The notes below the pieces were generated by a model, which did not search any database, was not told the DNA's origin, and was given only the letters and a program-made list of their open reading frames with translations. DNA of 64,000 bases. Origin: an uncultured virus (IMG/VR IMGVR_UViG_3300047458_000106). Lineage: Duplodnaviria > Heunggongvirae > Uroviricota > Caudoviricetes. Below are positions 4,255 to 13,469 of the stretch, piece after piece (within the stretch, counting starts at the first letter, position 1; each line of letters begins with the position of its first letter). The stretch is taken from the IMG/VR virus record IMGVR_UViG_3300047458_000106; one strand, written 5' to 3'. A program made the position numbers and the translations under genes.

Positions 4255-5559
4255 ATGGAAGTACAATCTTACGACCAATTGATTGAAAAATGGAAACCAG
4301 TCTTAGATGAAGAATCTGCTGGTGAAATTAAAGACAATCACAGACGTTCCGTAACTGCGGCACTTTTGGAAAACCAAGAGAAAGCAATTGCAGAACAAAA
4401 TGAGACTATGTTATTTGAGGCCGCACCTGCTAACAATACTTCAAGTGTGTCCAATTTTGACCCAGTCTTAATCTCATTAGTTAGACGTGCTATGCCTAAC
4501 TTAATCGCATACGATGTATGTGGTGTTCAACCAATGAATGGACCAACTGGTTTAATCTTTGCCATGAAGGCAAGATATCAAGGTGGTTCAACTTCTAATA
4601 GAGAAGCATTGTTCAACGAAGCAGAAACTAGATTCTCAGGTGATTCATCTGGAACTCATGATTCTGACAACGTTTCAGGTTACAATGGTATTGACTCAGA
4701 TGGTGACAGATTAACGTCTCTTGCCGCTTCTGGTATGCCTACTGTTGATGCTGAGGAACTTGGTGCATCTACTGGTAGTACCTTCAATGAAATGGGTTTC
4801 ACAATTGAGAAATCAACTGTAACTGCTGTTTCAAGGGCGCTAAAAGCAGAATACACTTTAGAACTTGCTCAAGACCTTAAAGCAATTCACGGTCTAGATG
4901 CTGAAACAGAACTTGCTAACATCTTATCTACTGAAATCTTAGCAGAAATCAATAGAGAAGTTATCAGAACTATTAACTCACAAGCAAAAGACGGTGCCCA
5001 ACAAGCAAACGTTACTGTTAATGGTGTGTTCAATATGTCTTCTGATGCTGATGGAAGATGGAGTGCTGAGAAGTTCAAAGGTTTAGGTGTTCAAATAGAC
5101 AGAGAATGTAATCAGATAGCGAAAGACTCAAGAAGAGGAAAAGGTAATATCCTAATCTGTTCTTCTGACGTTGCAACTGCTTTAGCGGCCGCTGGAACTT
5201 TAGATTACTCTCCAGGTATATCTAACAACTTAAACGTTGACGATACTGGTAATACTTTTGCTGGTCTTCTTAACGGAAGAATCAAAGTATACATCGACCC
5301 ATATGCAAATACTGACTACTGTACAGTAGGTTATAAAGGTACTAACCCTTATGACGCCGGTGTTTTCTACTGCCCATACGTACCATTACAAATGGTCAAA
5401 GCAGTTGGGGAAGATACTTTCCAACCTAGAATTGGTTTTAAAACAAGATACGGAATGGCGTCAAACCCATTTGTAGGTTCTACACCTGCTAACGGTCTTG
5501 CTAGTGTTAAAACTAACTTCTACTACAGAATATTCAAGGTAACTAATATCTTAACATAA
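4255..5559 (+). CDS. g23: Major capsid protein (gp23)
   Basis: RRAMPNLIAYDVCGVQPMNGPTGLIFAM; ELAQDLKAIHGLDAE; FQPRIGFKTRYG. Confidence 0.98.
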   Translation: MEVQSYDQLIEKWKPVLDEESAGEIKDNHRRSVTAALLENQEKAIAEQNETMLFEAAPANNTSSVSNFDPVLISLVRRAMPNLIAYDVCGVQPMNGPTGLIFAMKARYQGGSTSNREALFNEAETRFSGDSSGTHDSDNVSGYNGIDSDGDRLTSLAASGMPTVDAEELGASTGSTFNEMGFTIEKSTVTAVSRALKAEYTLELAQDLKAIHGLDAETELANILSTEILAEINREVIRTINSQAKDGAQQANVTVNGVFNMSSDADGRWSAEKFKGLGVQIDRECNQIAKDSRRGKGNILICSSDVATALAAAGTLDYSPGISNNLNVDDTGNTFAGLLNGRIKVYIDPYANTDYCTVGYKGTNPYDAGVFYCPYVPLQMVKAVGEDTFQPRIGFKTRYGMASNPFVGSTPANGLASVKTNFYYRIFKVTNILT

Positions 5560-6555: not shown

Positions 6556-6619
6556 AGTATTTCCTCCAGTTTTCATTTCGATTTCGTACATACGATATAA
6601 ATCGTACACCCTTCTCCAT

Positions 6620-6768
6620 GCGTTCCTTCGGTTAACTTTCGGTCTCGTTCAGCACTGGAATATATTGACCCAAAAGTGCTTACTTGCTTACCTTTCTTTA
6701 TGAAAAAGAAAGAGGTTGTCAGGTTTTCCTACTTCCGTCTTAGTGGTCAATAACACTAAGATGAACGT
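6620..6768 (-). ncRNA. Glutamine riboswitch (glnA/glutamine-I type) with long P3 insertion
   Basis: Minus strand CGTTCATC-[TTAGTG/CACTAA]-GACGGAAGTAGG...CCGAAGGAACGC matches the marine glnA motif core. Confidence 0.8.
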
Positions 6769-6787
6769 GTATATTTCTATACATTAG

Positions 6788-7628: not shown

Positions 7629-7657
7629 TTGACAATTGTTGCCGAACCTATTATAAT
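7629..7657 (+). promoter_or_regulatory. Consensus sigma70 promoter
   Basis: TTGACA-17-TATAAT. Confidence 0.85.
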
Positions 7658-7663
7658 ACTTGT

Positions 7664-7792
7664 ATTGAAAATAAGAAAGAGAGGTAAGATTCAGAATAAA
7701 ATAACGGCGTAAAGTCAAAGGTCGACAGACGTTCACCCCCGGTGAGGTAGATTTTGAAGTGGTAGCACCCTTCCCTTGACCGGGGTTTTTTT
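7664..7792 (+). ncRNA. Putative ~130-nt early small RNA
   Basis: Lies between the consensus promoter and a CCCCGGT/ACCGGGG stem + T7; no ATG ORF. Confidence 0.5.
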
Positions 7793-7799
7793 ATAAATA
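7792..7799 (+). promoter_or_regulatory. Late promoter for tRNA-Asp
   Basis: TATAAATA 5 nt before the tRNA 5' end. Confidence 0.8.
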
Positions 7800-7804
7800 A
7801 CATT

Positions 7805-7878
7805 GGTCTCTTAGTTTAATGGTAGAACTTGTCTCTGTCTAAGACGAAGTAGGGGTTCGATTCCCCTAGAGACCGCCA
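7805..7878 (+). tRNA. tRNA-Asp(GTC)
   Basis: Acceptor GGTCTCT/AGAGACC, D arm GTTT/GAAC, anticodon stem TGTCT/AGACG with loop CTGTCTA, T arm AGGGG-TTCGATT-CCCCT, G73, encoded CCA. Confidence 0.92.
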
Positions 7879-7894
7879 GAAATCACAAGTAGAG

Positions 7895-8160
7895 AAGAGT
7901 CGTAGTTGGTTGGTTGTTGTGAGACTCAGAAAAGATGTTCTAGTTGTTAAAGTCAATTAAGACGTGGCATATAGTAGTGAGACTAGAGTAAACATCGAAC
8001 AATGATTGCAATGAAATTCTTACGTAGTTGGGTTGGGATTTGCAGTAAAACGATACTTGTTATGGTGGAAGGCCGAAACCACCTAGATAAAAAATAGAGT
8101 GTAAGAAATCGGGCAGTCCCCGAGACATTGAACTACTATACAATCAACTACACGATTCTT
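7895..8160 (+). ncRNA. Putative ~270-nt structured RNA between tRNA-Asp and iscU
   Basis: Ends pair over ~18 bp (7895-7912 with 8141-8160); several internal helices; possible pseudoknot. Confidence 0.7.
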
Positions 8161-8172
8161 ATAAATAGTAGT

Positions 8173-8622
8173 ATGGCATATAGTAGTAAAGTAGTAGACA
8201 GATTTGAATCTGTATTAAAAAATCCAGAAAAACATGCGGTGGGTAGATTTGACCCAAAAGACCCGAATGTTGCAACAGGATTAGTAGGCGCACCAGCATG
8301 TGGTGATGTCATGAAATTAGATATCAAACTTAATCCTGATACAGATGTAATTGAAGACGTTAAGTTTAAAACATATGGGTGTGGTAGTGCGATAGCATCA
8401 TCAACGATGTTTGTCGAAATGCTAAAAGGTAAAACTATCGAAGAAGCAAAACTCATAAAAGATAAAGACATTGCCGAAGCATTAGAACTTCCTGCGATTA
8501 AATTGCATTGTTCTGTTCTTGCAGAAGAAGGTATTAAACGTGCAGTAGAAGATTGGGAAGAAAAGACTAAGCATAGAAAACATAATCAATCATGGGAAGA
8601 CCCGAACGGTTATGGTTATTGA
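8173..8622 (+). CDS. iscU: Fe-S cluster scaffold IscU
   Basis: GAPACGDVMKL, KTYGCGSAIASS, LPAIKLHCS; ATG 5 nt after TATAAATA (8160-8167). Confidence 0.95.
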   Translation: MAYSSKVVDRFESVLKNPEKHAVGRFDPKDPNVATGLVGAPACGDVMKLDIKLNPDTDVIEDVKFKTYGCGSAIASSTMFVEMLKGKTIEEAKLIKDKDIAEALELPAIKLHCSVLAEEGIKRAVEDWEEKTKHRKHNQSWEDPNGYGY

Positions 8623-8932
8623 GTTAACAGATGGAGCGATATCTAAAGCGATTGAGAGAACGGAGACAGGCAATCGAAGTGGTATTCGTCTTGGGGTCAC
8701 TGGTGGTGGGTGTGCTGGTTTTGAGTATTATATTGAATATGTTGAGTCCATTGCTGAAAGCGATACTATTTTAGATTACGGAAAGTTCAATATAGTAGTA
8801 GATGCAGTATCATTGCCATATCTAGAAGGTTCTACTTTAGATTGGGTTGTTGACGGAATCAACGAGTATTTTAAGATAATAAACCCTAAAGAAGTATCGT
8901 CATGTGGATGTGGCGTGTCAGTTCAGTTCTGA
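8612..8932 (+). CDS. iscA: A-type Fe-S carrier IscA
   Basis: GGGCAGFEY and NP...SCGCGVS. Confidence 0.93.
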   Translation: MVIELTDGAISKAIERTETGNRSGIRLGVTGGGCAGFEYYIEYVESIAESDTILDYGKFNIVVDAVSLPYLEGSTLDWVVDGINEYFKIINPKEVSSCGCGVSVQF

Positions 8933-12186: not shown

Positions 12187-12387
12187 TTATGTAAAGTGTT
12201 TTTTTAGTACTTCTAGTCTATCTTCGTAGTGTGCAATCTTGTCTAGTTCTTCTTCAATAGTCACTATTAAATCACCATGTTCTGCAAGACCAACTCTTTT
12301 TTCAGTTAGCACTCTTACATTCATTTTATGTCTTTCAATGCCCGCTTCGCATTGTTTAATTAACACATCAATTATTTCACTTGTCAT
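12187..12387 (-). CDS. Small conserved hypothetical protein
   Basis: GLAEHGD..IEEELDKIAHYEDRL. Confidence 0.7.
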   Translation of the reverse strand: MTSEIIDVLIKQCEAGIERHKMNVRVLTEKRVGLAEHGDLIVTIEEELDKIAHYEDRLEVLKKHFT

Positions 12388-13469
12388 ACTGCCTCCTTCA
12401 ATGGTTTACTAAGTTCTTCCCAACTTGTTTCATAATCACTATCACCTTCTGCATAACCCATAACACCTAGTTTCTCATATTCAGGCGTAAGTTCTTCTCG
12501 TAATAGTCCTATCTTTTTAAGATTCGGCATTATTCTACTGAATAATACATCTTGAAACTGAGTTTGAAATACATGACCTTTTTCATACTCTTCTGTCTCT
12601 TCTATATTTAGACCATATTTATTCCATACTTCATATGCTTTTAATCTGTTTCTGCTGACAGTACATGCCTCTAAGGCAAACTTTGCTCTATCCATTTGTT
12701 CTTCTTCTGAAAGTGTTTGCACAAAATCAGTCAAATAATTTATACCAAAAGTAACGTGTCTTGCTTCGTCTCTTATAATATATTCTAACATTTGTTTATA
12801 AACTGGGTCATTAGTACCTTCTTTTGCCGCTTGAAAGGCCGCTAGTGCAAGACCTTCAATAATTACTTGCATACCGATAAATTTTAAATCCCATCTAGGG
12901 TCAGTAAGTATTTTATCTAGTAAACCTTTTAATGCTCTACCAACTGGCCATCTTTTTCCTAATCTTGTTTGAATATACTTATTAAATGCTTCAACGTGTC
13001 TTGCTTCATCAAAAGTTTGAGAGGCCGCATATAGTTTTGCATTAAATGTTGGCGCACATGATGTTAATTGACTTGCAACTAATAATGCGCCCTGTTCGCC
13101 ATGAAGAAACTGACTTGTTCCCCAACTATCTAAATCGTTAAAAAACTCTTCACGTCTCATTCTATCCCAAGTTTTATATTGTGGGTGATTTATCCACTGA
13201 GCATCTTTATGTTCGAACTCACCATCTGGCATTGTATCATTTAATTCTGGTGACCAGTCAACATCGACTTCTACATTCCAATTAAGTTCTTTACCTAATT
13301 CATATAGTTTTTTAATACGATTATCTTGAACAGTATAATCCCAGTTATAAGAACCAGTTAAAGGTGTTTGAAAAATTTCAACAACATCTGTTGGGTCTAA
13401 GTTTGCAGGATATTCCTCTCCGTTATATTCGACTATGTTTTTTGGAGTTTGAGTTTTTATTATTTTCAT
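12384..13469 (-). CDS. Ferritin-like diiron protein (AurF/N-oxygenase-like)
   Basis: HGEQGA...DEARH...IEGLALA...DEARH diiron pattern. Confidence 0.8.
   Translation of the reverse strand: MKIIKTQTPKNIVEYNGEEYPANLDPTDVVEIFQTPLTGSYNWDYTVQDNRIKKLYELGKELNWNVEVDVDWSPELNDTMPDGEFEHKDAQWINHPQYKTWDRMRREEFFNDLDSWGTSQFLHGEQGALLVASQLTSCAPTFNAKLYAASQTFDEARHVEAFNKYIQTRLGKRWPVGRALKGLLDKILTDPRWDLKFIGMQVIIEGLALAAFQAAKEGTNDPVYKQMLEYIIRDEARHVTFGINYLTDFVQTLSEEEQMDRAKFALEACTVSRNRLKAYEVWNKYGLNIEETEEYEKGHVFQTQFQDVLFSRIMPNLKKIGLLREELTPEYEKLGVMGYAEGDSDYETSWEELSKPLKEAV

Follow-up and report, generated by a model that had tools for sequence, protein, structure and literature searches.

A new, uncatalogued family of compact RNAs with four pseudoknots is widespread in ocean phage sequence, and a reduced copy lies between a tRNA-Asp gene and iscU in the stretch of DNA analysed here (the window, 64,000 nt, part of a T4-like phage genome). 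The RNA is very probably a free-standing structured element, and comparison of the loci that carry it establishes, at the level of sequence, its independence of the downstream gene. In the window, the major capsid gene (4255-5559; best cultured relatives C48C1 at 69%, Melnitz at 62% and HTVC008M at 61%) is followed by a glutamine riboswitch, rpsU, tRNA-Asp, the RNA element, iscU and iscA, in this order. The immediate surroundings of the RNA are:

7629..7657, + strand: perfect sigma70-type promoter, driving another RNA, small and structured (7664-7790), that precedes the tRNA
7792..7799, + strand: T4-type late promoter TATAAATA, 5 nt upstream of the first base of tRNA-Asp
7805..7878, + strand: tRNA-Asp(GUC), found by ARAGORN, with CCA encoded, ~7 nt upstream of the RNA
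7886..8152, + strand: non-coding RNA gene of ~267 nt, a reduced subtype A of the new family, matched by covariance model R1
8160..8167, + strand: T4-type late promoter TATAAATA, 5 nt upstream of the iscU ATG
8173..8622, + strand: iscU (NifU_N; PF01592, E 4.6e-41), a neighbour of the RNA and not its partner

Extent and distribution of the family

The ends of the window copy come from its homologues (plus or minus ~5 nt), and R1 matches 7885-8152 with 216.7 bits. Members of the family are 265-310 nt long, lie on uncultured marine T4-like phage contigs and fall into the subtypes A (that of the window), B, C and D, representatives of the other subtypes being 38-65% identical to the window copy; subtype C, left out of the R1 model, still scores 88-118 bits. 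Pattern scans returned 19, 99, at least 120 and 96 viral stretches (overlapping sets) and at least 120 metagenome stretches. R1 confirmed 80 of the 80 viral loci tested, which were drawn from the scan with at least 120 stretches, and 74 of the 80 metagenome loci tested. In 96 sequences, 92 positions are at least 97% conserved. A P6-based pattern recovered the known subtypes only, plus one chance match, and a pattern for variants with a different first P5 pair recovered none. Among 185,579 prokaryote genomes, the pattern scan gave seven matches, one of them real (L322). This locus is contig NYUU01000005.1 in a Synechococcus bin (MAG), where the RNA accompanies phage-like genes, one neighbour being presumably peptide-deformylase-like; it is probably a phage-like contig contaminating the bacterial bin. 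R1 found nothing in 151 genomes of one class, a set without positive control.

Proteins of the T4-like window are matched by 47 of 67 RNA loci. The element is nearby (blastn) in 15 of the best 80 of 582 iscU loci, and in L004 and L018 tRNA-Asp runs directly into TATAAATAGTAGT-ATG, with the RNA absent, which makes the element an optional module. R1 is also without a match in the four cultured relatives C48C1, Melnitz, HTVC008M and Mosig, so that the wider group can do without the RNA; when three subtypes were compared with cultured phages by blastn, only tRNA or short chance matches came back. In each of the 8 pairs compared, the RNA is 93-99.6% identical, against 79-82% for the iscU DNA next to it.

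Rfam 15 gave nothing over 7880-8170, even at E 10, nor at the gathering cut-off over the RNA in the window, in 7 loci or in 20 loci; manA, one of the marine phage motifs to which the original prediction had pointed, is among the models without a match, together with the T-box, intron and ribozyme models. No description of the RNA was found in the literature searched, mostly outside subscription journals, including the available parts of PMC12286853, PMC10861870, PMC10690425, PMC9004378, PMC2988020, PMC10085705 and 10.64898/2026.09.22.753630, and its motifs occur neither in three supplementary files of PMC10690425 nor in the accessible supplement of PMC10085705. A fragment of the RNA could be among the short candidates of PMC10690425.

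Fold of the RNA

Comparison of homologous sequences establishes the fold, with four pseudoknots in the full-length forms. The region folds better than its shuffles (z -2.56, 0/100). In a 27-member sequence-only alignment, a 56-pair model has 95.2% of its cells paired and double changes in 34 of the 56 pairs, against 33-48% paired for slid controls, and a tree test counted 52 compensatory events on seven helices (null mean 2.2, maximum 14). Additionally, the model pairs rank top in a blind all-against-all column-pair scan of 96 sequences. From 5' to 3', the plan consists of P1, P2/P3, P4, P5, P6, P7 and a tail pairing as PK1, PK2 and PK3. This is an unusual arrangement, in which the 3' tail closes onto three different loops in turn and locks them, with no closing stem. 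The elements present in the window copy are:

7897..7927, + strand: hairpin P1, GAGUC/GACUC, stem 7897-7901/7923-7927, with a 21-nt G/U-rich loop (7902-7922)
7934..7996, + strand: P2 (7934-7939/7991-7996) and P3 (7940-7945/7981-7986), around a conserved loop
7953..8131, + strand: pseudoknot PK1, UCAAU (7953-7957) with AUUGA (8127-8131)
7972..8138, + strand: pseudoknot PK2, UAGUAGU (7972-7978) with ACUACUA (8132-8138)
8007..8044, + strand: P4b (8007-8011/8040-8044) and P4c (8015-8018/8031-8034)
8024..8151, + strand: pseudoknot PK3, GUAGUUG (8024-8030) with the 3' end CAACUAC (8145-8151)
8045..8053, + strand: conserved unpaired bulge GUAAAACGA, with AAACGA conserved to at least 97% across 96 sequences
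8061..8092, + strand: P5 (8064-8068/8079-8083) in a UAUGG...CCUAG context, then AUAAAA
8109..8123, + strand: hairpin P7, variable in loop length, 100% paired and top-ranked pair of the blind scan

The conservation of AAACGA is partly selected, because the motif belonged to the search pattern. P1, whose loop holds a conserved G(U/A)UGG(U/A)UG (loop variants exist), has 7 independent compensatory changes and no breaks on 4 pairs, counted after a one-column register correction for subtype B. P3 is 100% paired, with double changes in 5 of 6 pairs, and a small predicted helix P3a (7947-7949/7958-7960) is invariant across the alignment. P4b has 17 independent compensatory events and 3 breaks, and P4c is 93.5% paired; between them lies a tandem GA/GA internal loop with a GG bulge, which we take to be kink-turn-like, and the context of P5 presumably resembles the 11-nt tetraloop receptor. 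The window copy is a natural deletion form that marks a dispensable part: it lacks the P6 hairpin (loop UAAGG) and a GAAGGAC linker, ~24 nt after 8092, and P6 is absent from 12 of 67 contexts.

The pseudoknots differ in their comparative support. PK1 (5/5 pairs in 55 of 67 contexts, 4/5 in 12) is invariant in subtypes A, B and D, so that its covariation comes from subtype C, where UCUGU/ACAAA represents two compensatory changes and one mismatch. PK2 is 98.4% paired, with double changes in 5 of 7 pairs, 7 independent events and 2 breaks. As the loop lengths vary, PK3 was assessed by permutation: over 49 variants, the cognate loop-tail duplex reaches -6.8 kcal/mol, against -4.1 for non-cognate ones (z -8.8), compared with z -0.8 when the 5' loop is the tail partner. 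PK4 joins the P5 loop to the linker, with the variants ACC/GGU, AGC/GCU and AGU/ACU, 6 compensatory events and 9 breaks, and it is degenerate in the window copy.

The helix motifs proposed earlier for this RNA, namely GATGTT/AACATC (7934/7991), CTAGT/ACTAG (7940/7982), TTCTTAC/GTAAGAA (8017/8101), GGTGG/CCACC (8064/8079) and TCGGG/CCCGA (8109/8119), all lie where they had been placed. The second and the last two hold with compensatory changes, as does the internal pseudoknot 7972-7978/8132-8138, and the first (P2 here) is kept less cleanly, at 82% paired. TTCTTAC/GTAAGAA was abandoned (82.8% paired, no compensatory events, 9 breaks), and so was the pairing of the two ends (7895-7912 with 8141-8160), with 49.8% of cells paired, no compensatory events and 31 breaks: the 3' end pairs with 8024-8030, not with the 5' end, which forms a hairpin of its own. 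Within subtype A, a change from CUAC to CUGC in the tail is followed by the P4 loop, the 5' loop remaining fixed. Nevertheless, in the window copy the end-paired fold has the lower nested energy (-61.2 vs -46.4 kcal/mol for the nested part of the model, pseudoknots not counted) and the tail pairs more strongly with the 5' loop (-15.7) than with the P4 loop (-9.8), so that this copy could misfold, and a second conformer in vitro is possible on these calculated energies.

Genomic contexts, expression and the iscU start

Contexts were compared for 67 clusters of loci whose flanks reach at least 150 nt upstream and 200 nt downstream; 12 chance loci had been removed by hand, and one D copy is misfiled as C. 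A tRNA (Asp, Glu or Arg) adjoins the RNA in 28 of the clusters (11 upstream, 17 downstream), and none is adjacent in 39; rpsU is also among the neighbours. The RNA ends in a terminator-like hairpin in 20 of 67, and a promoter-like word, searched with a loose pattern and no null, precedes it in 41 of 67. In L089 promoter, RNA and terminator follow one another, with no downstream gene on the same strand.

T4 late promoters occupy positions -13 to -6. Given that TATAAATA lies 5 nt upstream of the iscU ATG and equally of the first tRNA base, we predict that tRNA and RNA share a leaderless transcript and that iscU has an mRNA of its own, nearly leaderless and without the RNA. The 5-nt spacing is repeated in 9 of 17 distinct tRNA-Asp upstream sequences, and a late promoter lies 4-6 nt before the ATG in 19 of 58 distinct iscU upstreams (an SD-like word in 2 of 58). 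The accessible text of PMC2988020 places T4 late promoters about one helical turn upstream of the start. For the promoter region 7792-7805 (+), the start would fall on the mature 5' end of tRNA-Asp, a candidate for a leaderless tRNA-Asp independent of RNase P. In the window, TATAAATA-N5/6-ATG occurs at 8160, 44368, 49298 and 55770.

Among the RNA-library runs listed, 18 of 24 contain part of 7650-8650. In the four runs used for coverage, X7 contigs span ~7695-8150 (tRNA and RNA), X10 includes a 251-nt contig that is exact over 7883-8133 (X7 and X10 come from two studies), X9 covers 7814-7960 and X1 spans the whole region evenly. In X7, iscU is not covered, a gap to which no weight is given. 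These are contigs only, with neither strand, ends nor level and possibly including DNA, and they therefore speak for presence in RNA libraries only, being a weak hint of a discrete RNA.

The original prediction was right in seeing a structured, tRNA-linked RNA with an internal pseudoknot, but read it as a candidate translational switch for iscU, pointing to the 14-base word TGGCATATAGTAGT, whose only two occurrences in the window are at 7965 and 8174; ACTACTATA at 8132 and the late promoter at 8160 were confirmed as well. A shared word of at least 14 bases between a 60-mer and the preceding 260 bases occurs at 5 of 2117 comparable places in the window, so that the match is locally rare. The switch was rejected on context, loss of the 14-mer, RNA-less relatives and internal covariation. 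Homologues of the RNA precede tRNAs, terminators or unrelated genes, the outcome that the prediction itself had named as refuting it; iscU follows in 8 of 67 contexts, all of subtype A. Across the 67 contexts, the RNA neither stands consistently 5' of one gene class nor has an expression platform or any one gene that always follows it. Of 13 distinct iscU-adjacent variants, 2 keep the whole 14-mer; L004 and L018 keep tRNA-Asp, late promoter and iscU with the RNA absent, and on a single contig iscU (L011) and the RNA (L212) are ~70 kb apart. Regarding the proposed three-way complementarity, 8132-8138 and its internal partner covary, but iscU does not. Of the 14 shared bases, eight make up the start codons MAY that are usual in these iscU genes (ATGGCATAT in 47 of 58 distinct starts), and TGGCATAT, an ordinary MAY start (47/58), is also an RNA loop independently conserved in iscU-free copies. 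The match is explained as a coincidence of two independent constraints; that so striking a start-codon match can be a coincidence gives this negative result its importance.

It is extremely improbable that, in this lineage at least, 8132-8140 would leave the pseudoknot and mask the iscU start on a read-through transcript. The identity is real and locally rare, and a terminator-like site between RNA and iscU is absent. The best argument remaining is that the strand can pair with the AGUAGU immediately ahead of the ATG: 11 of 13 iscU-adjacent variants retain this pairing at -6.7 kcal/mol or better, though without covariation, and in four of them it is better than that with the internal partner. 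Nevertheless, AGTAGT likewise precedes the ATG in the RNA-less L004 and L018, and the full 14/14 identity is confined to 2 of 13 variants, pairing with the iscU codons being weaker than the internal pairing in the other 11. Additionally, 59 of 67 contexts are not upstream of iscU, near-identical RNAs stand next to exchanged iscU alleles (L006: RNA 99.6% vs iscU 80.2%) and iscU has a late promoter of its own.

Three further observations concern sequences flanking the RNA. In L199, a structured-looking stretch without an Rfam match (1323-1425, +), closed by GAUUGGAGG/CCUCCAAUC, directly follows it. In L007, a 215-aa ORF without a Pfam match (735-1382, +) is inserted between RNA and iscU. In L171, the place of tRNA-Asp, ~100 nt upstream of an RNA copy of subtype A, is taken by an element that looks like a tRNA but was not detected as one.

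Known RNA classes and possible functions

The RNA resembles the ornate RNAs of tRNA islands in setting but is not a member of their classes. According to the available text of PMC12286853, ROOL and GOLLD are large, multi-pseudoknot phage-encoded RNAs of unknown function, often near tRNA genes. The new RNA is similarly phage-encoded, rich in pseudoknots and found beside tRNAs (28 of 67 contexts), but at 265-310 nt it is far shorter than the ROOL model (RF03087, 574 positions) or GOLLD (RF02032, often >800 nt) and, unlike both, it has no closing stem. No match to the ROOL model with its ~550-600-nt P1-P19 fold was found in G001 or G002 (the positive control pMP118 scoring 130 bits), and R1 does not match the pMP118 ROOL. 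The conserved 3' domain model of GOLLD matched none of 3 records at E<=1, and cmscan gave the same result; a GOLLD example to serve as positive control was found in 0 of 141 genomes, so that the comparison with GOLLD is at the level of the models. The raiA motif RNA, described in the accessible part of PMC10861870 as having two or more pseudoknots, many invariant bases and its own transcript, shares these features and the size class, and even the short words AAAGUC, AAACGA, AUGGUG and GGUAAG in the same order. However, raiA (RF03072) is cellular (Bacillota, Actinomycetota) and closed by P1, the new RNA is not so closed and its look-alike words pair differently. Neither a model match with raiA, in either direction, nor a P1-closed fold was found, the positive controls being detected in 32 of 81 genomes; the ordered-word likeness against shuffles has z 0.3-2.9, with p<0.05 in 3 of 11 members and none above z 3 (RNase P control, p<0.05 in 1 of 11). 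Type A RNase P RNA (RF00010) has AAAGUC, GGUAAAC, CCUAGAU and a pseudoknot between 5' loop and 3' end in common with the new RNA, but its P4 pairing, 3' conserved region and P1/P2 closure are not kept; there is no model match in either direction, and P4 with its bulged U is not formed. Kinship with raiA or RNase P, first suggested by shared motifs, found no convincing support in the examples compared. For a one- or two-piece tmRNA (tRNA-like domain with T-arm and CCA, tag frame), ARAGORN returned only tRNA-Asp and Rfam nothing. Finally, the cis-regulatory RNAs manA, glutamine riboswitch and wcaG share the marine phage setting, but the new RNA has neither their Rfam matches nor a fixed downstream gene; the true glutamine riboswitch is on the opposite strand at a distance of 1.1 kb (6617-6769, -); its P3 carries an insert of 94 nt, and a weak DUF4278 match follows downstream of it.

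We favour, as the probable reading, a free-standing phage structural RNA acting in trans, and commit ourselves to a translation-linked target as a guess; this last part is tentative, drawn from genomic company and loop sequence. In the window, the RNA would be made late on the same transcript as tRNA-Asp and freed by tRNA processing; elsewhere, it would have its own promoter and end at a terminator or at a tRNA 5' end. Its knotted 3' end would protect it and so allow accumulation, and it might then serve, in its folded state, as a scaffold or decoy for components of host translation (a tRNA, the ribosome or an RNA-binding protein), making contact through its conserved bulges and through the G/U-rich loop of P1, which is exposed. 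A more specific picture, rather unlikely, is a catalytic or tRNA-gripping machine in which the four-pseudoknot core would place the invariant UGG of the P1 loop on tRNA CCA ends, with kink-turn-like and T-loop-like modules perhaps, and just as doubtfully, helping to position it; if true, the phage would sense, protect, sequester or process tRNAs by RNA alone.

The RNA presumably carries receptor-like, kink-turn-like and T-loop-like motifs. Known ribozymes have comparable size and knot density, and this likeness, together with the many conserved unpaired bases, the frequent tRNA company and the motifs just mentioned, would fit a new ribozyme class, with the four-pseudoknot core and invariant junctions as the active site for, e.g., processing or joining in trans. 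This is improbable: models of RNase P, introns and small ribozymes are all without a match, the complement of RNase P P4 is not formed, the varying position relative to tRNAs misfits a ribozyme trimming tRNAs in cis, and subtype A is conserved despite having lost P6 and PK4. Type III antitoxin mimics have repeats and 6S RNA is rod-like, and neither repeats nor such a rod are present here. It is quite improbable that the RNA is a decoy with no link to translation, which would engage a defence of the host or a regulatory protein that binds RNA and work as a nuclease sink or as a sigma/RNA polymerase or antitoxin mimic. Its patchiness among close relatives (nearby in 15 of the best 80 iscU loci) and its several genomic sites would nevertheless fit an exchangeable counter-defence cassette. 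A self-assembling multimer or cage like those of ROOL and GOLLD, with open loops bridging copies, is unlikely as well: the size is half that of ROOL and GOLLD or less, palindromic covariation is not seen, and the GGCC close to the P6 loop lies partly within a stem and is broken in some copies, even though the P1 and P6 loops are conserved without an intramolecular partner in the blind scan and the setting (phage, tRNA islands, many pseudoknots) is that described in the available text of PMC12286853.

There are few classes of large and highly structured non-coding RNA, and the ones whose function is understood play central parts. The present one is compact enough for probing and cryo-EM, and opens a practicable way to ask why ornate RNAs accompany the tRNAs of phages.

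Elsewhere in the window, 12384-13469 (-) encodes a ferritin-like protein of 361 aa, which matches AurF and the RNR small chain weakly, below cut-off. The small structured RNA at 7664-7790 (+), without an Rfam match, has an invariant ACGGCGUAAAGUCAAANGUCGAUAGAC that may form an H-type pseudoknot, and a covarying GC-rich stem with a U-tract (double changes in 9 of 30 predicted pairs), and is kept in L004 and L018, where the larger RNA is absent. The anticodon stem of tRNA-Asp (7805-7878, compared with L007, L018 and L096) shows several compensating changes between close relatives.
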